This document shows, piece after piece, positions 5,809 to 45,440 of a stretch of 64,000 nucleotides of DNA (its first letter is position 1; each line of letters opens with the position of its first letter). The notes under the pieces are model-generated. The model made no database searches. It was not told the origin of the DNA and saw only the letters and a program-made list of their open reading frames with translations. Position numbers and translations under genes: made by a program. The DNA comes from Octopus vulgaris (lineage: Eukaryota): NCBI GenBank assembly GCA_951406725.2, contig OX597819.1, forward strand, positions 62,124,001-62,188,000, in the 5' to 3' direction.

Positions 5809-6470
5809 TCATCATCATTTAGCGTCTGCTTTCCATGCTAGCATGGGTTGGACGGTTCAACTGGGGTCTGTGAAGCCAGAAGGCTGCATCAGGCCCAGTC
5901 TGATCTGGCAGTGTTTCTATGGCTGGATGCCCTTCCTAACGCCAACCACTCCGTGAGTGTAGTGGGTGCTTTTTATGTGCCAGACGGAGCTGGCAAACGG
6001 CCATGAACGGATGGTGCTTTTACATGCCACCGGCACGGGGGTCAGGCGAGGCTGGCAACAGACACGAACGGATGGTGCTTTTACGTGCCACTGGCACGGG
6101 GGCCAGGCGAGGCTGGCAACGGACACAAGCGGATGGTGCTTTTACGTGCCACCGGCACGGGGGCCAGGCAAGGCTGGCAATGGACACGAACGGATGGTGC
6201 TTTTTACGTGCCACCGGCACAAGGCCAGTCGGGGCGGCGCTGGCAACGGTCACAAACGGATGGTTCTCTTACGTGCCACCGGTACTGGTAACTCAGCTGC
6301 AATTTCCATTGATCGATTTCGATTCTGATCCTCACTTGCCTCAACAGGTCTTCACAAGTAGAGTTTTGTGTCCCAAAAAGGGAAGGTATGCATACGTAGG
6401 CTGGCTCCATCCCATGTAGAAGGCCACGGGTTATGGTCTCACTTCTTTTGCCGGGTCTTCTCGCGCACAG
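5805..6470 (-). mobile_element. Retroelement 3' end (RTE-like LINE/SINE tail) with internal 61-62 bp tandem repeats
   Basis: (GAT)n tail, shared AACCCATGCTAGCATGGAAAG terminal motif, about five imperfect repeat units at 5965-6290. Confidence 0.75.
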
Positions 6471-7059
6471 TATATATATACTTGTTTGAATTGCTTTGTC
6501 TTCACATTGCCTGATAGTTTGTAAATGTGTACCACCATCATCATATGAGCAGTGTCATTCATTTTCAATCGGCATAGACACTTGCTAGGCTATGGGGACA
6601 ATTATCTTGCTTGGAAACAGGTAGCATCTGCCAACTAGAACAGCACCTGACCATAGAAAATGTGCCTCAAAGAATTCCATCCTATGCTTGCAAGCATTAA
6701 AAAAATACCCTGATGGCATATGTATACAAATGCATCTGTTTACAATTGCACTTGTTTGTATGAAAGTCACATTGCTTGAATGGTAGTGTTGGCACTTCTC
6801 AATAAATTGTCTATTTTCTTTGTGCCTTGTATGCTGTGTAGATTGAGAAATCTCAAGAACAGTCGAAGGTTAGTATTAGGAAGGGTGTCATCTAATCCAT
6901 GCCAACATGGAGGAATGGACAAAACGGTTAAGCTAATTTTGAATATCAGTGTTACATAGTTAAATTTTTCAGTATGTATCCATGCACACAGATTTTAATA
7001 TTTTGCTGCTAATATTGTTTCTTGGATTTTAAAACCCTGTTTTGTTTTTATCATTACAG

Positions 7060-7128
7060 GATTTGTATTGTGTACGGAGTGACCTGGGTAACTTGCTCAA
7101 GGCATTGGGGCGATTGGATGAGGCAAAG
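7060..7128 (+). CDS. OGT: OGT exon (69 nt; mammalian exon 4 equivalent)
   Basis: cag| [23 protein letters not shown] |gtaaaa. Confidence 0.96.
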
Positions 7129-8302
7129 GTAAAATATGTACTTCCTGTGTCATGAAAATTTTACTCCACACCTATATTTTGTGTAAATAAATCTATATAT
7201 TACATATGTGTATATAGATATGTCTGAGTGCATATATATAAACATATATATATAAATATATTTATGTATTTATATATATGTGTGTGTGTACATATATGTA
7301 TGTATGTATGTCTGAGATTGACTGTCAATCTTTTCTTTTCCTTTGTAATATACAATATTGTAGATATGGGATCAATTTATCCATTTAACTGTCTCAAAGA
7401 TGTTAAACCATCCTTTGTCAAATCTATTTAATAAGTTTTTATCTTCTGTCAGAAGACTGCAGTGTGGTCATGTTGATTTTCCCGGGATTCCCTGTTTTTC
7501 TAGATGATGAGCTGCGGCTTGAACATATCTGGACATTTTGTTTCTTTTTAAAAATTCAAACAAAAAAATGAACACATTACTTATTTTATTATTTTTTTTG
7601 TTTGAATTTTTACCTGAAATTGCTTTCGATTTCCTTATCATCCTCATTTACTTTGATCAGTTAGACCCTCCAAATAAAAGCCAAATTAAAATTGTGTTTC
7701 ATAATTGTATATTTCACATTTGAAAAATGGAAATTTCCTTTAGAATTAGTACTTATTTCTACTTTTGTATTGCTAAGCAGATATGAATCCAATCTCAACA
7801 GATATTGATGGCAGGTATTCCAACTTGATAAAAATTAGCTCAGCTCGTAGTCATGTTTTATAAATAGAAACCCAATAAAGCATTTTATCATGCAATATAT
7901 AAAACTGTTTTCTCAAACTAATTTTTTTCTAAAATATGAGAATCCACGATAGTGTGAAAAACAGTTAATTGAAATTTCTGCTTGCTCTATTTATAACAGT
8001 TGCAGTTATAAATAGAGCATAGGTAACAGCTTAGGTATCAAATGTATTTTGTTAGAGAAGGCTTTTAGATGTAAAGCAAAATATTTCTTGATAATTTGCT
8101 TGTCAGCTATTGTATAGCTAATGAATTTAGAGGGAGAGCTAAACCTAGAAAGATTTGTAGAATAAAGGTTTCAAACCACTGTGTTCTTTACAAATGGAGA
8201 GGCATCCTTATCACTACATTTGAACAGGTCTACTTTGAACCAGCACTAGACCATAATCTTTTGATTAATCATTCTTGTTAAAGAAAATTAAATCATTTTT
8301 AA

Positions 8303-8499
8303 CCCCTTTGTTACCCTGTTTTTTTGAAACACTCATGCTTTGTTTCAATTAATTTTGGAAATAATGAATACGTTATTAAAATAACTTGGTCGTTATTAAA
8401 GCTGTTGTTTGGGACATAAATTAGTATGAAATTCTGATGGAAGGTTTTAGATTATTTTAAAACAATTTGTTTTATAAAGGCAGGTTGATATCTAAAGGG
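8303..8499. mobile_element. piggyBac-type MITE, second family
   Basis: TTAA|CCCCTTTGTTACC ... GATATCTAAAGGG|TTAA. Confidence 0.65.
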
Positions 8500-11400
8500 T
8501 TAAGTTTGTATGTGTATAGTGGGGAAAGCGGAAAACTGCATGTAGCTTATGTTATAGTTGAAACATCATGTAAGTGTTTGATGTGTGTGTGTGTGTCTAT
8601 ATATACACTCGCATGCATTATTAAACTAAGTTGATAGGCTTACATTAGTTTTATTTGAAATTTAATGATGATAAATCATCTAAAAATGATCAGGCTAACT
8701 GACTGTTGGTTTTTCAATAATTAATTAGCAGGTTAATCTGTTGATTCAGTAAGGGTTTTTTTTTTCATTTGCATGCTGAAATTTATACCTTGCATATTAA
8801 TTAGATTTAATATCTTATTTAAATGGGGCAACGAACCTGCTCTCTCTAATCCATATTTGGCTTGATCTAGCATTTTGTTTATGCTGTCATGTGGGGATAT
8901 ATATTTTATATACTAGTGTTTGAAATTTTGATCTTAGCCATGTAGAGAAGTAAATAAGATATTAACTTTGTTAGTTTAGCATTGAACAGCCATTTTGTAC
9001 TTTTGCTATGTTACCTTCTACCTCTGTTGACAAGTAAGGGAAACAGAAGTTCTCGTTCAGTGGTGCATTACCACTCGCATGAAATGAACTTGTAACTTCA
9101 GCAAATGTTTTATTAATTTTATAATTGAAAACCCTTTATATTTTTCCCTTAAAGTGGAATTGTTAAAATGATCCATTGCATTGAAACATAAAGTATTTCT
9201 TTTATGATCTTGTAAAACAGAATATTCTCTTATGAAATACACCTGAATTTTTTTTTCTTTGTCATTTTCTTCCTATATTTGATTTCCCCTTTTGAAAGAT
9301 CCTTGCTTCTCCAAGAAATGTTCTGTTGATTAATTTTTTTCCAAACTTTTCTTTGAGATACAGGCTAACCTTTTCCCCTCCCTTTCTACCTAAATCTTCA
9401 CGCGTTTTGTCCTGAGGGATAGGGGAAAAATACCACAAAACAATCTAGACTTTCCCAGGAGAATCAATGACCACTCTGCAACCTTAAAATTTTGAGATTC
9501 ACAGGAAGGAAGTTCAGGCTGGTCGTGGTTCCCTCACATACTGGTTCTAAACTTAAATTCAAAATAAAATCTTTTCCAAATTTCTGAATGTTTTAAAACT
9601 TCAGCTGCAATCATATTATGTATATATTTTTGCCTGAAGTTTTTCTGATTTAAGTGACCAACTTTTGTTTGATAAAGCCTTTTGTCTTTAATTTAGAATC
9701 TTCTACCATAAAAATGTTTTTGTATCATAATTGCTTTATCAAAATAAAAAACAACAACAAAACCCCCCAAATTCCAATAAAATTTTCAAGCTTTTAGTAT
9801 CCAGTATGTATGTGCACTCTGAGCCAGCCTTAACTTCCAATCATTGCTATCATATGTTATGAAAGCTGGAACCCCTGCCAGTTAACCCCAACACCATTTA
9901 AAAGATTATACTGCAGGATGCTGAATGAAGCCAACTACTACTACTATTACTCAATGGAGTGTGAACTGTTTGCATTGCAGCACTTGCTGTTTAATATTGA
10001 GGGAGAAAGCAAGGCTTGAACTAGTCTTGTTAATACTGCCACAATGTCAGTCAGGATCCAATTGCTCCCACTGTTATTTATATTAGGACACAATTTATAA
10101 ATTTAGTTGTCACATGTCTTTAATTTAATGTCAATGCTTTCTAAAGAAAAGAGAAAAGGACTTGGCAGCGCCTCTTAAAATTCATCTAAGAAACTGCATG
10201 GGAAAAAAAAAATATATATTTATATAAGAAAAAAAGACTTGGAAATAAATATTTTCCTTAGAATTAAAAAGAAAAAATATTGCAATTGTAATGTCTAGTC
10301 TTCTGTTGTCATTACATCACATTGCTTAGTTCCTGTGATTTATATTGTTCTTGTAGTATAATGACAATTATCTGTAGAGGCATATCTACTTCTCTTTTCT
10401 GTATATGGTTCCCATAGTGCATTTTTTTACACTCTTTGTACTCTTTGCCAATTTATCTATTTTACTGTTACTACTTATTACCACTACTACTACTATTGCT
10501 ACTTTTTTAACTACAACTAGTAAATGTGCGCGCTTTTAAGTTCTTGTTATGTCGTCAATCTGTAAGCTATTTTGTGTCTAAAATGAAAAACCAAAAGTAC
10601 GAAAGTATATGGAACACATGTGCTAAACATTTTAAAACTTTTTTAAAGCTTAGAATTTTTAGAAATACACATTTTCCTTTTTTTTTTCCCTCCTTTTTTT
10701 CCGTCTGTCTCTTGAGTCGGTATATAATACAGCAATACCATCCTGGCTACATTGTGCAGTATATTTACATTGACAAAGGATTGTTTAACTGCTTTAGGGA
10801 TAGATAAGATACTTTATTGTTTTGTAAAAAAATTAAGTTCAAATCACTACAGGACAATGTTTATTGAATGTGTAAGACTTCCAGTTACAAATAATCAAAT
10901 GATGCAACATTTTGTTTATCCTTTTGAATAAATTTTTGATTTCATATTCTTTTTAAAAATTGGTCAGAACAGTGGAGATGGCTGAAGCAGCAGACTGCCA
11001 AGTTGATGCTTTGATGTAATCAGTTTGGTACCTCACTGTTCTAAGTTCAAATCCCAATTGGACTGACTTTTTTTTTGCATTCTTTGAGATGAAATTGACC
11101 CTTACAATTTATTGGTGTACTTAATTCAACAAATTTTTCCCATCCCAAAAATGTGCCTGATTCCTGAATGAATTCTGATTATGACAACTGTAGGAGGTAC
11201 CAATAATGATATTGTTAAATGTTTACTTTACTATTATATTAGTCTGCTATTTTGAAAGGTAATCATAATGAAAATTTAAATCTTAAAAATTGAATACTTA
11301 TTTAATTTATAAATTTGAAATATTTTATATCAGTAAAATATACTTTATGTATTTATATATGGAAAAAACAAATTAGTTTGAGTGGGATACAAATTTCAGT

Positions 11401-11842
11401 ATGGAGCCAGCCTACATATGCATACTTTCCCTTCTTGGGACACAAAACTCTACTTGTGAAAACCTGTTGAGGCAAGTGAGGATCAGAATCGAAATCGATC
11501 AATGGAAATTGCAGACGTGTTACCAGTGCCGGTGGCATGTGAGAGAACCTTCCGTTTCGCAACCGTTGCCAGCGCCGCCCCGACTGGCCTTGTGCTGGTG
11601 GCACGTAAAAAGCACCATCCGTTCGTGGCCGTTTGCCAGCTCTGTCTGGCACCTGTGCGGGTGGCACGTAAAAAGCACCCATACACTCACGGAGTGGTTG
11701 GCGTTAGGAAGGGCATCCAGCCGTATAAACACTGCCAGATTTGACTGGGCCTGATGAAGCCATCTGACTTCACAGACCCCAGTAGAACCGTCCAACCCAT
11801 GCTAGCATGGAAAATGGACGCTAAACGATGATGATGATGATA
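11401..11842 (+). mobile_element. Same retroelement family, opposite orientation to 5805-6470
   Basis: Near-identical reverse complement of 5805-6410 with fewer repeat units; (GAT)n tail. Confidence 0.78.
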
Positions 11843-13790
11843 GCAATCATGCAGGCACATGTCCAATTTATATAAGAATATTCCACATTCTACAGACATC
11901 TCTTTGTGGAAAAACTGTTTTGATTTTAGCTGTAAAGCAGTTTAGTTTGATTTGAGTTACAAGATGGACCTGCATATTTAGAGCTCTACTAAAATAAATT
12001 TAGTGAGTAAAATCATAGGACAAATGCCACTCTTAAGTTTTGATGATTCTTTCGGTTAACTTGTTGTTTAATGGTCTTTTAAGAATTGTTCCAATTGTCT
12101 TCATATATGTAGGATTTATATTGCACCAATGTGGGTCTGTTAAAGGTCATCATTTAATGCTTGTCATGTTATATTTCCATTTACAACCTTATTACATAAG
12201 ATGTGAATCAGCTGCTTACTTGGTGTCCGAAGCAGATGTTTTAATGCAGTTGTAGATTTGTCCTAATTTTATGTCAACTTTCCATTCTGGGATGGGTTCC
12301 ATGTCTCATGTCCAAGTCAGTGATTATTTGGAGATACTTCTCCCTCAAAGACAAGTTGAAAGACCATTTCATTTTTGGTTGCAGCTGGATGCCCTTCATT
12401 CATTGACCACTTTACCATGTCTACCAGATGTATTGTGGGACTCACACTAATCTTCATTACTCTGTAATTTGTTTGTTCACTCAAGATAACAGGTGTTGTG
12501 AAGGTAACTACAAGAGTGATGGCAAACGGTGAACCAGGCTGGGTCAGTGAAAGTTGCAGGAGTGTGATGTTAAGAGAGACGAGGTAGTAGAAGAGGAAAG
12601 TATGATGGATAGAGGTGGGCAATGACGAGTGATGGGTATCAATAGCAAATGGCTTCTGGGGAGAGAGAGTGAGTGATGATTGGTAGTGCAGAAAGGGTGT
12701 TCTGGGGTTGTATCAGGTACTGCCAGAAAAAGAGTAAATAGTCTAGTAATTTAGATGAAGCTGATGTAAACTTGGCATGGAAATATTGGTAGAGACCTGT
12801 GTATGTGTAACTAACACACACACACACACACACACACTATATATATATATATGCATACAGGTAGCTTATATCTTCTAACCACCATTGTTTTTGACATTTC
12901 ACCTTGCTTGCACAAGTGGACAGACCTTCTCTGGCACTGCAGGTTGCCAAGCATGTTAGTTCTTTGTCATCTACATGGATCTAACCATCAGTCTTCATAT
13001 TATCCCATATTGTGTTTTTCTATAGGTTCCATCCACTTTGAGTGCCCTACATTTCTTCGTACAACTTTCGTCTTAATACATTGTATATCCACACCAGCAT
13101 CTGTCATACTCTACATCTGATATTTTTAATATCTAGTTTGCCACACAACTCATTTGCACTCTGTTCATGCATAACACATCTGTCAGAGCATGCTTGCTTC
13201 AATTCTTTTTAGTCTTCCCTTTAAGTTTTCTGCTTTAAGAGCTCGCATCAGTGTGAGTACACAAGTGTCATAAAAATTTGCCTTTGACTCTGAAAAAGAT
13301 GCCCTTTGTAACTCCCACAGTCAATAGCTCCTTGAACTTTCCAACTTGTTTAGCCCTGGCTACTACACTTTTGCACTTACCTTCATTGTTAATTTGGTCA
13401 CCAAAATTACAGACTACTTCTAGAGAGCCTTCTGGGACTTTCAGAATCTGTTTCCTGAGTGCGCTGTTCCTGAAAATCTACTTGATAATATTTTATAGAA
13501 TTTGAGCATTTTGAGCAAACCTATATGAAAACAAATATCAAAGCTGCTTTTCATATCAAAAATACTGTTTTGGATAAAGTTAAAAGTTTAAAGCTCTGTC
13601 TTTGGAATTAATGTTGAGTTGCATCAATCACTTTCCAAAAAGCATACAAGAGCACTAAAACTACATGCCAGAAGTTAATTTTAAAATATTTTTTAATTGA
13701 TCAGTACAAGATTCTATAGCAACTAAATGTACAAGTCAATAAAATACATTTTATAAGTATAATCACCAAATATTTTGTGATAGCTGTTAA

Positions 13791-14864
13791 CCCTTTCGTT
13801 ACCAAGCCGCCCGAAAAAAATTTTGGTTAATGTGACCAAACTGCCCAAACCCGTCCGTATTTACCTATTCATATTTAAATGAGAATATCAGAGCAAATCT
13901 CTTTAGTACATTCGTGAAAACATGTGATTATACTTCGTAAACAGTTCATCTACAGTTTTGTACATTGATCGAAGTGTAATTTTAATTCTGTGAATTTTGG
14001 GAGATTTTTTTCCGAAATTTGTTCCTATTGTGTTTTCAAAATTTGTAATTCTGACAAAAAATGGATACAAATTTCATTATATCAAGTGGCGAGTCAGAAT
14101 TCGAAGGCTTTTCTACTGAACCTTGATAAATCTAACTCTATGACTGAAAAAAAAAGCACGAGGTATTTGATAATGAATCCGATGTTTCATTTTCCGAAAG
14201 TGAAAACAGTGAATCCGAGAGCTCCGACAGCGATAAAGAAAATGAATTGGCACCTGAATGGAGTGAAAATTTAAAAACTGTTTCTTTCGGTGATTTTTCT
14301 GAAGAAACTGGACCAAGCCACAGTCTTTCCCAGGAGAGTAAAGCCTTAGACTATTTCTATTTACTTTTTCGAATAAGCCTATTTGAAATCATTACGGCGG
14401 AAACGAACCATTACGCTAAATGTAAACAAAGCGAAAGAAAGGATAGTTTGTGGTTTCCCACAACCTTAAATGAAATTAAGGCCTATTTTGCCATAAATAT
14501 TATTATGGGTATCAGAAAGTTACCCAGAATAACAAATTCTATAGTAAAATTTTGTTGTATACCCAATTGAATATTAGCTAATAACCCATTTTCTATAGCG
14601 ATGTTTGAACAAAAATTTTAATAATTTTATATTTTGTTGAATTTACCTGTATCTACCTGCAATTAGTCACTTTGTGACAAAAATTATAGTATAGAATTGG
14701 TTGAGAACATTTCATTAAATTATCTTCCAAAAATCACATTAATATATTAATAAATAAAAAAGTTATAGTTGTTTAATGAAACCAGACTAAATTTATGATT
14801 ATGTTAGAAATTAATTGAAACACATAAGGGGTGTATTTTGGTCATAAATATAGTAACGAAAGGG
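13791..14864 (+). mobile_element. Internally deleted piggyBac (PGBD4-like) transposon
   Basis: TTAA|CCCTTTCGTTAC ... GTAACGAAAGGG|CTAA termini; residual peptide LFEIITAETNHYA...WFPTTLNEIKAYFAINIIMGIRKLP typical of piggyBac transposase N-terminal part. Confidence 0.88.
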
Positions 14865-15640
14865 CTAATAGACATTTCTTTTGTGTAATTCTTTTCCAGG
14901 GAAGGGTGCGTCACCTTTTGGTCATGAGGTATAGATTGTGATTTGGGCTGAAGTGGAAAAAAATTAGCCCAAATTTGTTAACAATTTAGTGCTGAATAAT
15001 ATTCAAAGGGCAATGGTTAGGATATAGTAGCCTCTACCTATTTTGAAATGGATTTGAACGCAATCCAAGAACTGTAATTCATTTAATTTCACTTGTCTGT
15101 ATTAATACTGACAACCTATTTGATTTCCACATGTTATAAATTGTTCATAATAGATTTTCCTTAATGGCTGGTGTGTATCTCTTGACCATGGTCCTGCCCC
15201 CACCCCGTGCTTAACAGCTATTTTGTAAACCTCAAAAATTGAATATTTTATTTTGTTCATGTAATATATAAATCCATTGACTTATTAATCTGCAATTGAT
15301 GTAATGGTTGTTTGCTCAATGCTCTAATCTGCCAATATTTCACACACACACACACACTAGTAGGATCGATTTAGTTCATAATTGAATCACTTCTGTGGAG
15401 CAATGCTTTACTAACAAAGGATTCATAAAAGGCACTCTTTTATATTTTTCCCTCATAAAAGTTGACAAATTTTATTGTCCTTAATAATTTTAAACTGGAA
15501 GTTACCCATTCAATAAAATTCCTGTGGATTGATTTTAATCATTTTTCATATTTTTAAAAACTTGACTGCTGATTATTCACTGTTGTCAACATTCTGTACC
15601 ACTGAACACTAATGATCGTCTTTTTTGATTTCTACACAAG

Positions 15641-15896
15641 CAATGCAGGTGTGCTCACTGCTATCAAATAGTGTGCCCGCCTGGTCAGTCAGTCACTCGT
15701 GTCTCCTGGGTCAGTCACTAGCTGTGGGTCGGTCAGCGGTTGGTCATCTTCTACCTACTCCCGGCCCAGCCTGGCCAGGGCAGGCTGCTGCAGCAGCACC
15801 AGGACCAAAGGACAGACTCCTCCTAGTTGACTACTACTACAGAGCTATGAATGAATACATTGGTATTAGTAGACATCTCTGAGGTGTGAGCTGAAG
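15641..15896 (+). promoter_or_regulatory. Candidate decoy/poison exon in the large OGT intron
   Basis: Branch-like CACTAAT (15607), pyrimidine tract, AG at 15640 and 15648, GC-rich body, clustered GTnnGT hexamers, in-frame stop, donor-like sites at 15884-15914. Confidence 0.55.
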
Positions 15897-17240
15897 GTAT
15901 TGTATACTTAAATGTGAGTCAATTTCAGTTGTAGTCCCTGGCTATTTGTCTCCTATTTCTGCAGTGTAATGACATCTCTTTTACTGATTCATGATGGTCA
16001 AGTGTGATTTGGGGCAGTTTGGATTGCAAATTTCACCACCTAATGACATATATATATTTTCCTTTGGTTATAGTTTTTGCTGCTGGCTTTGAAACTGTTT
16101 TCCTCTTCATTGTTATAAAGGACACAGCTTAATTTGACTCCACATTCAAAATTGTTGATGGAAGTAATATTTGTTTTAATTTCAGTTATCTTAGATGATG
16201 AGAAAGCATTTAGTTCATATAACAGTTGAAATTTCTCTTGACTAATAATAGAATATTCTTATCACTGAATTAAAAAGAAATACTAATTTAAGAACCGACA
16301 GGATTAACTAATTTTAGCGTACCCTCTCCTTTAACTTTTACAAAATGCTGGTCTATAAAAATACACTCTTTAGATGTTGTAGGCTAATAAAACAAATGTC
16401 TATATAATTTAGTAAATCGATCTTTCTTATTGCTTCTTAAAGTGTCTTTAGTCAAAACCATTCACTTGATTTAATTATGTGCAGTTCACTTCTTGGAATT
16501 GATTTTGAATGCTGAAAGCACCCTTGGTATAAGAACTTCATTTGGCAAAACATGCTGCAAGGGCAATAACCTGTTCGCACCATGGTTGTTAAGGTTTTTT
16601 TTAATTCAGTTTTCTTTGGCACACTGCAGTTTATTTGCTGACTCTTAGTTCTCTTGTATTTAGCCCCTTTTTAGTAATAAATATTGAAGTCTGTTGTTAC
16701 CTTTGTAAATGTTTTCCAAATTTTTTTTTAAATAGATATTTGTATTTGATTTTGATTTGTTTAAATTGTGTAACTTATATGGAATTTGAAATTCTAATTG
16801 ATATAGTTGTGAACTATTTGATTAAACATAGCTTTTTTGGTAAGTACAGCTAACTGAGAATATTCATTAAATCTAGTTAATTTAGCATGTTTTGTTTTGA
16901 AGTCATTTTTGATTTCGTATCTGTTCTTGAAAGATGGGGACAAAAAACGTACTTCTGTGTTTTAACCATTTAACACCTCAAGTGGTGTTAGTAGAATATA
17001 TTGAAGGGTTTTTTGTTTTAATTTTTTTTTGTTGAAAGAATTATTACAATTTACAAATTTGCCCTGGTAAGAATCATTGTGGCAAGACTTCATTTTTCAA
17101 AATCAGTTTAGTTAAATGAGTATTTTATTTTTGTTTCAACTTACTCTATATTTAGTATACTTTTTCTTTATACAGTGTAATAGTTCTAGTTCTTCACACA
17201 ATCAATTTTTTGAATAATATGCTGTATGTGTGTGTATATA

Positions 17241-17296
<56 letters not shown>

Positions 17297-19803
17297 TTTT
17301 CTAGTTTCTGAAGTAGGTGTAAGAAGTAATTATAGAAGGAGCTGACTGAAGAAAATCATTGTTCAAGAATACTCTGTCTAGTGTTAGGACTGAATCTTGC
17401 TCAGAAAATCTGCATCTTATATGCCATCATCACTCCTTTAGTTATGGTAATTTTAGTAATGAAATATATTTGAAGTATTTGTATTTTATATCAACTTAAT
17501 ATGTATGCAAGAGACTATAGGATGCTGCATGGTAAAATTGTTTTGGAGAAGTTATACATTGTCACATGACTCATTGGGTATCATTGAATGTTTTACACTT
17601 GGTCTGTCAATGAAGATTCACTGCTGTTGTTTCCTATTGGATTCCTAGAAGCCTACAATTGCACAATATTCTGCCTCTTCAGTGTGTAGTAGTAAACCAT
17701 GAAGAGTTACAGATCTATACCAGTGACAGGATGTCAAACAAGATACATTGAAATCAAAATTGGAACAGTATAATTTATTTTATTCAATATAAGTTTTTAA
17801 AAAAAATGCAGTTTCATATAAGATACATTTGGAATGCTGCTTAGTTTCAAATTATTTTAAATTACCTGAAATATAATTTTGATGATGATGATGATCACTT
17901 ATATAGTATGAAGATGCTTTCCCGAGCTTGTATAAGTATTTTGCTCAAAAGTTACGACAAGGAAATTAGTTAAAAGTTACTACATGTATGAACCAGTATT
18001 TTTGCATTTTTATGGAATGGAATTTCTTCAAAATGTAATCAGTGTGTTCACATATTAAAAATTTTCCATCAAAAATTAGTTAATAAGGGATGACAGAAAT
18101 AGCATATTTTCTTTTACGCATTATTTACAGTAGAGGATTCCTGTTTCATGTTTTTTTTATTGTATGAGGAATTTGTCCAGGAATATGTATTAAAGTTTTT
18201 TTTTTTTTATATTTAAGTAAAAGGGTGAGAATTTATGTCTGCTTTCTACTGAGATTATTAGTGATAGAATATTTCTTGTTGGTTTCCTTGAATGGTGATT
18301 TTGTTTTCTTTTCCTCTCTCTCTCTTTCTATCCTACTGTCCCATGTAACAGCTTTACCTCTTTATGCCATTATACTGCAGTTGAAAGGATATTGATATGC
18401 CCTAAAATACAAGAAAAATAGAAAACAAAAACACCAGCATCAAATAACTTAATTTGTATTATTAAAAGTGACTACTATAATACTGATTTTTTAAGGTTCT
18501 TTTCATATTTTTTCATACAAGCTTTTTTTTATAAAGTCATTTTTCATAACATCACTAATTTCTCCAAAATTATTGCTAATTTTTCAGAATAATTGTTTTT
18601 CTATCTTTTTTCATTTTTCTTCTATTAGATTTTTTTTTACATTTTTATTTCGTTTCTTTACAATTTTTTTCTTTGTCTATTTCATTTTTATATTTCTATA
18701 TCAGTATTTTTGTGTGTATGTATTTTATGCAGTTACTTTTTTATTCCCTTAGCGCGCGAAGCATTGCGCGGACGCACTTGATCGCAGGCGAATAGATAAT
18801 TTTTTTTAGATGTCAGATTTCTTCTCCTGTATTTTAAAGTTTCCTCATCTTGTCATGGATGACTTGGATGTCTTCAATTTATCCAAAATTTCTTGACTGA
18901 TAAATTCTAAAAGTACATTTTCATTCACTTTGGGCTATATAAATAACACCTTATTTTAAGTGTTTTATTTTGCAAAATTTGTAATAATCAGTGAAGGGAG
19001 TGTCAGTTTTTCATTGTTAATGAAAAAATAAAAAGAAAACAAGCAAAAGTTTTCATTCGAATAATAACTAGAGTTAGAGAAATACTTCAAAACGTCATGT
19101 GTGTGTGGCTACCCATGATGAGGCAGCTTGTTGGGAGAAGAGAAGTGAAACCTAATTATTTTATTTCACCAAGCAGAACGGCTTTCTTCTCCTATTATTA
19201 CAAGAGAAGAGAAATGACATCTTTATTTTTTTAAAAAATTTTTTTATATACATATATATTTAATTCCATATATGTATGTATATAAAATGCGTGAATGTGT
19301 GTATGCATATATATGTGTGTATATATGCATATATATATATATATATATATATAATTTTTGTTTTACTTTGGTGTTATCAGCACAAGTCATCACTAATGTA
19401 TGGTTTATAGAACCAAAGTTTCTTTTAGCAGCTAACTTTTCAAATATATAAATAACTTAAATTTTAGATTTATTAAAATGTATTCACCAATATTTAATTT
19501 TGCTTTTTTTCCCCCTAAAATAATTTCATTTTTTTCTTTTGCTAAATCTCTAGATGATGCATTTATACAGATGTTAATTTGTTAGGTTGCCTAAGAAAAC
19601 ATGGTTCTAAAATCCTATATGCATGGTTAGTGCTTAACACAGTATTATTGCGCGCGTTTAGTTCATAGTGCAAAACTTCTACTGGAGCGCAGGCGACTTG
19701 AGCGCTTTGCTTTTGGATGTTCTTTTTAACTTTCTTTGTCTTTTGCCAACCTGTACAAACATCATTTATTTTGTTTATAACTGTAAATTTGCCTACACTT
19801 TAG

Positions 19804-19992
<189 letters not shown>

Positions 19993-27839: not shown

Positions 27840-28734
27840 TAGTAGGAATGTGAAATTGGTGGGTTGCACTTAAATTATTATAGGCAGGGGGTTTAAAATT
27901 GAGTATTTTTTTAATTATTATTTCTAATGATATTTGAAAATTATTTTAGCAGTTTTGATGGTAGAGACAATAGAAAGCATGCCTTGTTGCTTTTACAGTG
28001 TCTAGTCTGGTACATCACTTGCTCTGAGCTTAAATCTTGCCAGAGTTGACTTTGCCTCTCTTTTGGGTAAGGCTAGTGAAATAAATACCAGTGAAATACT
28101 GAGGTCTTGATTTGATCAACTCTTATTACTTTCCCTTCTAAATTTTTTTTCTCCCTCAAATCAAGAAGTAATTATCAAAATCTTCGTCAAAATTTTAGTA
28201 AGTAAAACACTATTGTTCTGTGATGACATTTTGCATCATGTGCACCCATATAATTTCATATTGCTACTGAGGAGGGAAATGCTAAATGACTATCTTGTAG
28301 AAAAAAATGTCATACACTCATTGTTAATGTGAGCTTTGTATTAACAGTTCAAAATTCCCTAAACCTTAGTCATTTTTTCCTTGAACATGAATTGAAGAAA
28401 CTTTGTTCTGAATTAAACAAGATTTATTGTTAATCATGTTCATTAGTCAGTAGCTTCTCAGATCTATTTTTTAACATCTGAAAATAGGAATCTATATAGC
28501 TTTTCAAAAAGTTTGTACAACTCTGCTTGTACAAATGTAAGGCATTCAGAGATTTGAGTTTCGTACTTTGCTCTTTGGGTATAATTCTTGGATTTTTTGT
28601 AATCATAGGAATATTTGTAATCATTGAAATTGAAGGAATTTTCTTCTTAAATTACAAAGGCAAAACAAACTACATTAAAGTTTATAAATAATAGTTAAAA
28701 TGTATTTTTGATAAAACTGCTTTCTCTGATAAAA

Positions 28735-28903
28735 TTTGTGTGTTTTATATGTTTGAATGTATTTGTGTGTTTTATATGTTTGAATGTATTTGTGTGTTTT
28801 ATATGTTTGAATGTATTTGTGTGTTTTATATGTTTGAATGTATTTGTGTGTTTTATATGTTTGAATGTATTTGTGTGTTTTATATGTTTGAATGTATTTG
28901 TGT
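28735..28903. repeat. 27-bp minisatellite, about 6 copies
   Basis: Unit TTTGTGTGTTTTATATGTTTGAATGTA repeated essentially perfectly. Confidence 0.95.
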
Positions 28904-29814
28904 GTGTGTGTGAGAGAGAATGAGTGAATGAAAATATATATAAATACACACAAATTTTAGATATTGATTTTGTTTATATTATTTTTCTTATATTTTTTAG
29001 TAAATTTATTTTACTTTTGTTTTGAAAATAGCTATATTACTTGCATTATTGGGGTTTGTTTAAAAATGTAAGTGCTTGTATAGAATTGGGTCTAAGAAAT
29101 GTTCATTATTAAGGTTCCAATTATTCATAAAAATAAATCTGCTTCATTTATACTTGACAGTTAGTCTTAAATTAATTAATATGGAAAGTATGAATTTCTG
29201 AACACAAATTTATTTGGATGTAATTCACAAATAATTCTAAATACCTTCTAGAATAAATATTTTAAGATTTTTTTTTTCTACTTGGCCTCATGTTTCATAA
29301 CAGTCTGTTATTCAACCAGTGCTTTTTATGGTAACTGTAAGCAATTTGGTTAAAAACATACAAGTTCATTTAGTGGTTACTGATTTCCCTGAATTGTTGA
29401 ATTGTAGCTTATGTGGTATTTTTATCGAAAATTGGTATAATTTAAACAGACTGAGCATATGTTCCCTCATTTGATTAAATTTGTATTTAAAGATACTTTT
29501 ACCTAGCTGAATATTTCTCTGTTCATTTATGTTGGGTTCTCTAAATATTCATTTTGATATGAAGATAACTTTCTGTTAGATGGTAGCTGTAATTGTAGTT
29601 AAAAAAAATATGAAATGAAGACATGAGGCCTTTCAGCAAGTACGACTATTATATCACTTGTCTCATCTCCCAGAGCTGTATGCTTTTTGTCAAGTTTCTT
29701 CTAGTTGAAAAATTACTAGGCTAAATCACTTTTGTTTCAAACTTGTTAATTTCTCATTTGTGTCAGTTATGAAATATATTTAATCCATTGATATAACTAC
29801 TAATTCGCCATTTA

Positions 29815-40279: not shown

Positions 40280-41204
40280 GTAGGTGTCACACACTTTCTC
40301 TCATTCAAATTAATTCTGTGTGGCAGTAAACTTACAATCATGAGTCAGTTCCAGCTTTTTGCTTAAGCTAATGCTATAATACCTTTTGTGAAAGGTTTGA
40401 GCATCATAAATTTTCAATGTTTTCCTCTAACTCTTGGATTCTTATCCTGCAGATTAGTCACTTAACTCGAACACTTTATTCTTAATCATGCAGTCTGTTA
40501 ATGTTTTTTTTTTTTTTTTTAATTTTTTTTTTTTGGAGACACTTTATGGAGGAATTACTCATATAAGGACTTCTGATTGTTTGTGGTACTTACATATTCT
40601 GACATAGTGACATGTGAAGTCAGTTCAGGGATTTGAATAGGTAATGTAGTACACATATCCTCGTTTATCACTGATTCAGTCATCACTGATCCGGGATAAG
40701 ATACGCTAATTGTGAACTGCATTACAGTTTTCTCAGATTGATTATGTGACAACGTAGGTCAGTGATCAAAGTTTCAGCTTGGACTGTAAAAGCATACCTC
40801 GGTGACCATCCACAATGCTCTGGTCAACTTAGGTCTTACCAATTCATTCAGCGTGGTGATTTTTGGCAACTAAGCGCCTATGATAAATGAGGATAGGTGT
40901 ACTTTGCCTGAAGGCTGCTAAGTATTTTAGCCAAATGCGACAATATGTCAGCCATGTTATCAACTTACAGATAATGTCTCTTTGTTATGTATTAAGCTTT
41001 GGTACTACCATCTTCAATCAGTAGTCCTGTGAAAGTAATTTTTCTCTCCAAATACTATAGTAACAAAATTTTGTTGTCATTGACAATAGCAATTCTTGTA
41101 GATCGTATGTTGCTTCTTTGTTTTTTAAATATCAAATTCCCCTACCTATATTAAATAGAAATATTGTCTTTAAACAGCCTTAGATGAATAAATTGTTATT
41201 TCAG

Positions 41205-41648: not shown

Positions 41649-42208
41649 ACCATAAAGGGGGGCGAGCATGGCCGTCCGCCAGCCTCGTCTAGCACCTGTG
41701 TCGGTGACACATAAGAAAACACCATCCGAGCGTGGCCGTCTGCCAGCCTCGTCTGGCACCTGTGTCGGTGGCACATAAAAAACACCATCCGAGCGTGGCC
41801 GTCTGCCAGCCTCGTCTGGCACCTGTGTCGGTGGCACATAAAAAACACCATCCGAGCGTGGCCGTCTGCCAGCCTCGTCTGGCACCTGTGTCGGTGGCAC
41901 ATAAAAAACACCATCCGAGCGTGGCCGTCTGCCAGCCTCGTCTGGCACCTGTGTCGGTGGCACATAAAAAACACCATCCGAGCGTGGCCGTCTGCCAGCC
42001 TCGTCTGGCACCTGTGTCGGTGGCACATAAAATCACCCACTACACTCTTGGAGTGGTTGGCGTTAGGAAGGGCATCCAGCTGTAGAAACACTGCCACATC
42101 TGACTGGCCTGGTGCAGCCTTCGGGCTTCCCAGACCCCAGTTGAACCGTCCAACCCATGCTAGCATGGAAAGCGGACGTTAAACGATGATGATGATGATG
42201 ATGATGAT
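41649..42208 (+). mobile_element. Same retroelement superfamily with homogeneous 63-bp minisatellite
   Basis: About 5.8 copies of a 63-bp unit (41664-42031) followed by the shared tail and (GAT)n. Confidence 0.8.
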
Positions 42209-44287: not shown

Positions 44288-45440
44288 TTGGGTCATCCAT
44301 AAATAATGCAGTTTTTTTCACTTGCATGGACTAAAAGTTGGATGGGGACAGGATAAACTACTTGCATCAACTTGCTATAAAAGCAGTTAGTAATGTTATT
44401 TTCTCTAAGCTATAATGGAAGTAATAAAAGAGCATATTTTGCTTTATGAGTTCAATAAAGACAATCAGGCAATGGAAAGTGCAAGAAATATTCATGCAAT
44501 ATATGAGGATTGGACAATAAGTGTAAGCCAGTGTCAACTGTGGTTTCAGAAATTCCAAGCTGGAAACTACGCCTAGAAGATGAAGTTGATGAGGACGTGT
44601 TGCAAACCCTGGTGGAACAAAATCCCATCGTAACTGAACTAGCAGAAAAGCTTGGATTTTGGTCATTCAACCATTCATCGACACTCAGAAGAGCCAGCAA
44701 ATTGGGTCAATGGGTTCCTTACAAACTTTCTGAATCTAATTGTGTGCAGAGAGCAAATGTGTGCTCTCCTTTGCTGTCACATCTCACGAATGAAGCTTTT
44801 TGGACTGAATAGTGATTGGTGACAAGAAATGGGCTCTTTAAAAATGTTGAACGCTGAAGACATTGGGTTGTGAAACGAGAAACACCAGCACTCCAGGCTA
44901 AAGAAGGTCTTCACCCATGTAAAGTATTATCTGTTTGAGATATGAAAGGTTTAGTCCACTTTGAAATTTTAAACCCAAACCAAATGATAACAAAGGAGAT
45001 CTACTGCGAGCAGCTTGAGCGGCCTTAAGTCAGCTCTAGAAGAAAAACGACCATCTTTGGTTTCAAGACAAAACGTGTTCATCCATCAGGGTAATGCTCA
45101 GCCACATTCAGCGATGATGACATTCCAAAGGGCAGTTTGAATGGGAGACGCTGCCCCACCCAGCATATTCGCTGCTCCATCTGATTATCATTTATACTGC
45201 AGTCTTCAAAATCATTCGGACGGAAAAAATATGAATTCTGTAGACGAGGTCAGCTGTACTGGAGAAGTGTTTTTTGTCATGGACTAGTGTATTTTGGAAG
45301 AGAGGCCTTGCAAGTCTACCAGATAGATGGTAGAAATGAAGGAGAGTATATTTTAGATTAAAAAAGGACTTTATCTAAATTTTGTAAAAAAAAAAAAGGT
45401 TTTAAAAAAAAAAAATCCACATTATCTATGGATGACCCAA
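44288..45440 (+). mobile_element. Degenerate mariner transposon with both TIRs
   Basis: TA|TTGGGTCATCCATAAATAATG ... CATTATCTATGGATGACCCAA|TA; relic motifs WVPYKL, IVIGDKKW, HQGNAQPH, APSDYHL with stops/frameshifts. Confidence 0.92.

Follow-up and report, generated by a model that had tools for sequence, protein, structure and literature searches.

Several studies have described a decoy exon in the detained intron 4 of vertebrate OGT. In these reports, the exon measures 143-153 nt and has a pair of acceptors and a pair of donors (PMC12017769, PMC6097662), it bears a stop, and the detained introns that flank it respond to O-GlcNAc (PMC7261177). An OGT intronic splicing silencer (ISS) is conserved in mammals and as far as jawless fish (PMC5588854), and SF1 and SFSWAP have been tied to OGT intron retention (PMC12017769). 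What senses O-GlcNAc and how a decoy works are called unresolved in these papers. The decoy exons of SF3B1, ARGLU1 and DDX39B are, like the octopus element described here, cryptic conserved cassettes with competing splice sites in introns of more than 1 kb; they belong to other genes, and their retention-promoting activity was established with reporters (PMC6097662), whereas the octopus cassette was recognized from sequence. Ultraconserved poison exons of SR-protein genes share with it a stop-bearing exon, constraint at the nucleotide level and a homeostatically controlled host gene, but SR-protein genes encode RNA-binding proteins acting on their own transcripts, and feedback on OGT would be indirect (PMC7261177). 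Drosophila sxc/Ogt, as cited in PMC5588854, is an invertebrate example of OGT control by long-intron splicing; it is stated there to have no ISS-like element. A literature search with most subscription papers outside its reach returned no report of an invertebrate OGT poison exon, of O-GlcNAc-linked intron retention in cephalopods or of OGT intron 4 in molluscs. Here we describe a stop-codon cassette that is strongly conserved and spliced and lies in the cephalopod orthologue of the OGT detained intron, which cassette we consider probably to be a decoy or poison switch limiting productive OGT mRNA.

The window, which is the whole stretch of 64,000 nt that was analysed (Octopus vulgaris, GCA_951406725.2, contig OX597819.1, 62,124,001 to 62,188,000), carries the octopus OGT gene on its plus strand. 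One exon of 96 residues was 100% identical to P0002 (Octopus sinensis OGT), and the cluster member P0121 aligned to the window exon by exon, which resolved 20 GT-AG introns. Intron 4 is the longest of them, the next being 4,512 nt, and at 12,675 nt it lies well above the 1 kb given for introns that host decoy exons (Parra et al. 2018). The vertebrate locus L031 clusters with a fish OGT in a FastTree tree (support 99); it has an intron at LEEAK|ACYLK and contains the 25-nt decoy donor stretch that was published as a morpholino target (PMC7373989). Since the L031 intron lies in the same place and this locus holds the published stretch, the octopus intron is, judged by shared position and phase, the orthologue of vertebrate detained intron 4. 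All splice-site scores given below come from a matrix built on the gene's own 20 introns with leave-one-out, a small training set that makes them rough. The features are collected in Table 1. Elsewhere in the gene, octopus OGT models differ by 7 residues at 41184-41204 (1035 vs 1028 aa), which fits an alternative acceptor 21 nt upstream; OGT introns also hold tandem arrays at 5989-6282 (61 nt, 4.7 copies) and 28734-28905 (27 nt, 6.4 perfect copies), and the last one holds a mariner-type transposase fragment at 44409-44573 (Pfam HTH_48, E 1e-14).

Table 1. Features of OGT intron 4 and its cassette in window coordinates.
Feature	Position	Strand	Remarks
OGT exon 4	7060..7128	+	Ends LDEAK; donor AAG|GTAAAA is second-weakest among the gene's 20
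OGT intron 4	7129..19803	+	12,675 nt, phase 0, between LDEAK and ACYLK
Near-invariant block	15560..15990	+	All 41 sampled words kept among octopus-like runs; borders are the sampled limits
Predicted branch point CACTAAT (15607-15613)	15607..15617	+	Within a 10-mer common to the vertebrate decoy branch point in L031
Acceptor 1	15639..15640	+	Equivalent follows exon 4 in one assembled transcript from a decapodiform and in two cuttlefish gene models
Acceptor 2, predicted	15647..15648	+	Motif and score
Cassette (poison/decoy-type) exon	15641..15913	+	273 nt; 3' border placed from cuttlefish models and donor score
GTCA-repeat cluster with donor-like hexamers	15684..15746	+	15684 serves as donor only in cuttlefish gene models
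Premature stop TAG, acceptor-1 frame	15719..15721	+	P0139 terminates here
Premature stop TGA, acceptor-2 frame	15880..15882	+	Frame translation
3' donor group	15884..15919	+	15884, 15886 and 15897 weak; 15914 GTGAGT likely the main donor
GCGC cluster	19650..19705	+	4 copies near the 3' end of intron 4
OGT exon 5	19804..19920	+	Starts ACYLK; acceptor is weakest of the gene's 20

The cassette had been picked out in a first-pass annotation as a GC-rich, decoy-like exon, and every coordinate given there proved correct, namely the branch-like CACTAAT, the AGs at 15640 and 15648, the hexamers of the internal cluster, the GTs at 15884, 15886 and 15897 and the GTGAGT at 15914. Its reading frames were also reproduced. 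Joined to the exon at 7060-7128, acceptor 15640 opens 26 codons and acceptor 15648 opens 77 codons before the respective stop, and either stop precedes 17 introns downstream of exon 5, as expected of a poison exon. The GC content is 0.52 over 15641-15913 and 0.59 over 15649-15830 compared with about 0.3 in the surroundings, which bears out the description as a GC-rich island. It had also been said to differ from the local repeats, with a copy-number check set beforehand; the island is single-copy, with one match in its own genome in a search that ignores very common words, no tandem repeat was found at it, and its contig depth is 11-13.5 compared with 10^2-10^5 at repeats of the same intron. 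An interspersed repeat was ruled out by the single match and the low single-contig depth. Among those repeats, 11400-12080 is a very high-copy transcribed element (contig depth 10^3-10^5) whose translation resembles a tandem array at about 41700-42180, and a transposase fragment at 14148-14567 (Pfam DDE_Tnp_1_7, E 1e-9) sits in a moderately repeated element (~13780-15135), ~500 nt upstream of the conserved block.

The two acceptors scored 4.4 and 4.6, within the 1.8-11.7 of the gene's real acceptors, and the pyrimidine tract upstream of the cassette is modest (pyrimidine share 0.68). Scoring upheld part of the set of donor-like sites that had been proposed: 15684 (7.9), 15914 (6.3), 15732 (5.6), 15710 (5.5) and 15884 (5.2) fall in the range of real donors (5.2-12.9), but 15688, 15724, 15728, 15739, 15886 and 15897 fall below it. 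The competing splice sites of decoy exons are thus present as motifs, with two acceptors and five donors in the real-site range, and use was seen for one acceptor. For the frame opened by AG 15648 (77-79 residues), no relative was found; the search of 1.84 billion representatives gave one low-complexity match without an aligned stretch, none of 33 candidates among longer proteins carried it, and it matched no Pfam family.

Conservation of the block was surveyed by sampled words. Of 24 listed runs, 19 kept all 41 words of 15560-15990 (8 studies, 4 organism labels), a figure biased by the selection of runs for containing the block and therefore not an unbiased species sample. Since none of the 24 runs is recorded as RNA (19 are tagged guess or unknown), the word survey by itself is silent on expression. 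The contigs of four of the 19 runs (X10, X14, X15 and X2) were aligned to 7000-17150. X10 was near-identical to the window throughout, and X14, X15 and X2 differed by 2-13% in other pieces of the intron. The island-bearing contigs of these three runs carried 29, 34 and 32 substitutions, of which an even spread would put 8-14 in the block; assuming random word sampling, the probabilities that all 41 words survive are 9e-5, 4e-8 and 1e-8, respectively. The high conservation described for decoy exons (Parra et al. 2018) is found both in these octopus-like runs and in decapodiform translations, and the conservation that the first-pass annotation had wanted checked is there.

Splicing of the cassette was observed in a decapodiform assembled transcript. 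P0139, which ranked first in a search of short OGT proteins (among the 120 of 205 matches listed), has 189 residues and comes from 2 Logan contigs; it runs through exons 1-4 and then into a tail of 26 residues, which matches the translation of window 15641-15718 at 26 of 26 positions and stops at the same codon. The OGT part of P0139 is identical to cuttlefish at 150 of 150 residues and to octopus at 142 of 150. Between octopus and decapodiform, the intron-encoded tail is by these translations better conserved than the enzyme part, across a split that dates back roughly 270 million years. Decapodiform conservation is known here through the translation of 93 of the 273 nt, and P0004 and P0139, like the bivalve, crustacean and mosquito tails below, are known as protein sequences alone. 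As a positive control, the translation of the L031 decoy forms the tail of the mammalian protein P0307. Of the two junctions that had been proposed from 7128, the one to 15641 was thus found, in P0139, and no product of AG 15648 was seen among the short or longer OGT proteins searched. P0139 and P0133, which covers OGT from exon 5 on, come from 2 contigs each with a longest of 3,871 nt and would fit one exon-included transcript; the bivalve-like P0159 also lists 3,871 nt, which weakens this reading.

A DNA-level or non-coding element, such as an enhancer or an RNA, that is spliced in occasionally by accident would agree with a GC-rich single-copy island and with a junction present in only 2 contigs. 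We regard this as very improbable, since the conservation is bounded by a branch point and acceptor on one side and a donor group on the other, at the orthologous place of a known decoy. A structured RNA was rejected in its own right, as no Rfam match was found within the 64-kb window and the fold was not unusual (z 0.13).

Two cuttlefish gene models (P0004 and P0137) carry 20 inserted residues that correspond to window 15641-15683 plus 15897-15913 (20 of 20 identical). Their route into the cassette is AG 15640 and their exit from it GTGAGT 15914, and an inner intron (15684-15896) removes both in-frame stops. Because the insert matches the window at both ends, both ends of the cassette are conserved, and the exon probably ends at 15913. 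The exon 4 to cassette junction is known from the transcript P0139, and the junction from the cassette to the downstream exon from these gene models alone. Since the inner acceptor at 15896 scores 1.1, below all 20 real acceptors, we read the inner intron as probably the gene-finder's way round the stops, a real exitron being less likely. The same models bear on a protein-coding role, either as a TPR-only OGT of 189 residues with a Cys-rich tail or as full-length OGT with a 20-residue insert after splicing out 15684-15896. The 26 of 26 identity of the tail between octopus and decapodiform, the in-frame cuttlefish models, the score of donor 15684 (top 1% of intronic GTs) and further pairs that keep the frame open (15641-15709, 15649-15687, 15649-15723 and 15649-15738) speak for such a product. 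However, conservation takes in third positions and intronic flanks (41 words over 431 nt), pointing to constraint on the RNA, the insert would interrupt a TPR repeat that is uninterrupted in human OGT, and the tails of other animals are unrelated in sequence. Together with the poor inner acceptor, these observations make a protein product improbable, and we favor a switch acting at the level of the RNA.

The internal cluster of the cassette consists of GTCAGT at 15684, 15688 and 15710, GTGGGT at 15724, GTCGGT at 15728, GTCAGC at 15732 and GTTGGT at 15739, and its density had been taken as a mark of a decoy. With the pattern GT.[AG]G[TC], which was fitted to these very sites, the 7 matches in 62 nt are the maximum of the 64-kb window and were reached by none of 2000 dinucleotide shuffles of the cassette, but stricter donor patterns showed no excess (GT[AG]AG, p 0.57; GT[AG][AG]G, p 0.87). 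The cluster can equally be described as a GTCA repeat, whose 7 copies within 63 nt are packed more densely than anywhere else in the window. GTCAGT opens 2 of the 20 constitutive introns of the gene and hence is a usable donor here; the decapodiform transcript P0139 passes unspliced through 15684, 15688 and 15710. Since the likely exon end is 15913, the decoy-like donor group is likely 15884-15914 rather than the internal cluster at 15684-15739, which may supply further decoy donors or serve as a repeat that binds a protein.

In all four octopus-like runs that were aligned, one contig spans both borders of the cassette unspliced with at least 200 nt on either side, and in X14 and X10 each of the 30 bins of intron 4 had depth. 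The runs were taken to be RNA from their size (49-134 million letters of contigs compared with a 2.8-Gb genome), and such contigs drop rare forms. Unspliced cover across the cassette can be explained by pre-mRNA or by DNA in this comparison, which covered intron 4 alone, and it fits an exon that is mostly unspliced and rarely included. The joints (15 of 78) and loose ends (24 of 799) listed for 7000-17150, a region without exon 5, include no cassette junction. No contig seemed to pass 7000 into intron 3, the single run-over per run being explained by the right end; as a gap in cover proves nothing, this does not serve as a control. These data weigh on the reading as a plain poison exon, which would be included and its message degraded without the intron being held in the nucleus, the trigger being perhaps other than O-GlcNAc. 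The sole junction evidence (P0139) is indeed of inclusion, both acceptor frames reach an early stop that precedes 17 introns, and donor 15914 scores like a real donor. Nevertheless, the contigs spanning both borders were unspliced in 4 of 4 runs, the cassette was present in only 1 of the 120 short OGT proteins listed (of 205), and contigs of other invertebrates retain intron 4 alone. A plain poison exon is therefore unlikely in our view, and a switch that may also detain the intron in the nucleus is preferred.

The vertebrate OGT decoy and the octopus cassette are alike in gene, intron position, phase, close paired acceptors, several close donors, an early stop and extreme local conservation. 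They differ in the size of the cassette (273/265 nt in octopus vs 143-153 nt in vertebrates), acceptor spacing (8 nt vs 3 nt), donor spread (30 nt vs 7 nt) and length of intron 4 (12.7 kb vs 3.0 kb in L031), and the internal GTCA-repeat cluster is present in octopus but not in L031. Octopus and L031 both carry the 10-mer ACTAATGATC where the branch point is predicted. The 9-mer at its core has a single occurrence in the window and another single one among the introns compared, but since ACTAAT itself is the branch consensus, only four letters of the 10-mer carry signal. A weak-donor word, GTATTGTA, is found in octopus at 15897 and in L074 and L026, with GTTTGTA in L031, and a GCGC-rich patch lies near the 3' end of the intron in both L031 and octopus. 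Direct alignment gave marginal likeness: 25 of 500 shuffles (local) and 12 of 500 (global) scored as well as the octopus and L031 elements, with windows picked post hoc and one vertebrate locus, and blastn gave E 3.4. The functional counterpart of the human OGT decoy that the first-pass annotation had proposed is partly supported, by the single copy, the conservation, the exon 4 junction and the orthologous intron. In L031, a second exon-like conserved stretch was noted at intron positions 2018-2104 (locus 8254-8340), which the tail of the bird model P0316 matches at 28 of 29 residues.

As far as these features tell, layout and place match the vertebrate decoy, and the near-invariant cephalopod counterpart would mean that the switch is older than the protostome-deuterostome split or arose twice in the same intron. 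The former, in which a single element was inherited from the last common ancestor of octopus and vertebrates, is a tentative reading toward which we remain slightly sceptical. The cassette would then descend from the same exon as the human decoy, having kept the branch-point 10-mer, the weak donor word and the GCGC patch, would have become ultraconserved separately in coleoids, and would couple the O-GlcNAc level to OGT splicing across animals. Although the sequences no longer align, the ACTAAY branch point, the pair of acceptors, the weak donor group and the GCGC patch recur, which singles these parts out as targets for mutation.

For the decoy or poison switch that we favor, the following mechanism is proposed. 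SF1 prefers ACTAAY-type branch points. The predicted branch point of the cassette is of this type, a motif that none of the 20 ordinary introns of this gene has in its last 80 nt, and it would bind SF1/U2 strongly. The weak donor of exon 4 would then pair with the cassette rather than with the weak acceptor of exon 5, while several mediocre donors compete at the 3' end of the cassette. As a result, intron 4 would be detained, or the exon would be included with its early stop and the message presumably degraded by nonsense-mediated decay; both outcomes would cut full-length OGT. By analogy with the vertebrate system, low O-GlcNAc would favor skipping of the cassette, and the switch would likely act in step with the O-GlcNAc level. 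The branch point of the cassette fits the link between SF1 and SFSWAP proposed in PMC12017769.

The exon 4 junction was also compared in other animals. Among the 120 short OGT proteins listed (of 205), 78 pass from exon 4 into a tail starting with V, mostly intron read-through, 26 continue into another exon, 8 into exon 5, 2 end at the junction and 6 were unparsed. The 26 include named crustacean, mosquito, Drosophila and mussel models; the Drosophila model P0226, for example, has a tail after exon 4 that is not exon 5. Five crustacean-type proteins (P0142, P0166, P0171, P0329 and P0330) have a common tail starting MLR after exon 4, and five others (P0165, P0170, P0173, P0177 and P0215) a common tail ending NLITA; these are lineage-wide stop exons at the exon 4 junction. 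The tails after exon 4 in other animals are unrelated in sequence to the octopus tail.

From 239 OGT loci, 80 were kept, of which 11 were fully spliced at the exon 4 junction. Three loci (L026, L077 and L081) had every intron removed but intron 4, and in three (L074, L017 and L038) exon 4 was joined to an exon that bears a stop. A FastTree tree of 48 of 61 rows, many of them short, placed L074 with bivalves and L026 among lophotrochozoan-like rows, whereas L077, L081 and L038 fell among arthropods. Intron 4 was the longest resolved gap in all nine genomic loci that have it complete, of 17 examined (some close kin). The island had no significant match to intron 4 of the 80 loci (best E 0.2-0.4). 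In L030, L026, L041 and L049, candidate cassettes were predicted by eye; L030 and L026 show ACTAAT, a pyrimidine tract, two AGs, 220-300 nt and a donor group. An automatic scan for decoy 3' ends with a pyrimidine cut of 0.72 misses the octopus site (0.68) and flags three other sites in octopus intron 4. Over 22 representative introns, GGTA?TTGT occurred 13 times vs 6.4 expected and GTA?TTGTA 11 times vs 7.0, post hoc counts to be read only as hints.

The GCGC cluster toward the 3' end of intron 4 is a possible second conserved element. It has four copies in octopus, where the other 19 introns, each taken over its last 300 nt, have one copy between them. Across animals, 36 copies were counted in 4,951 nt of intron 4 ends vs 14 in 20,471 nt from the ends of other introns, and at least one copy was present at the intron 4 end in 13 of 17 loci, L067, L070, L051 and L015 being the exceptions. 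Apart from intron 4, three dipteran OGT models of ~830 aa (P0079, P0080 and P0087) share an alternative exon at the N-terminus (MDYQCI...), connected just upstream of the exon 7 sequence, which may represent a conserved short OGT isoform in flies and mosquitoes.
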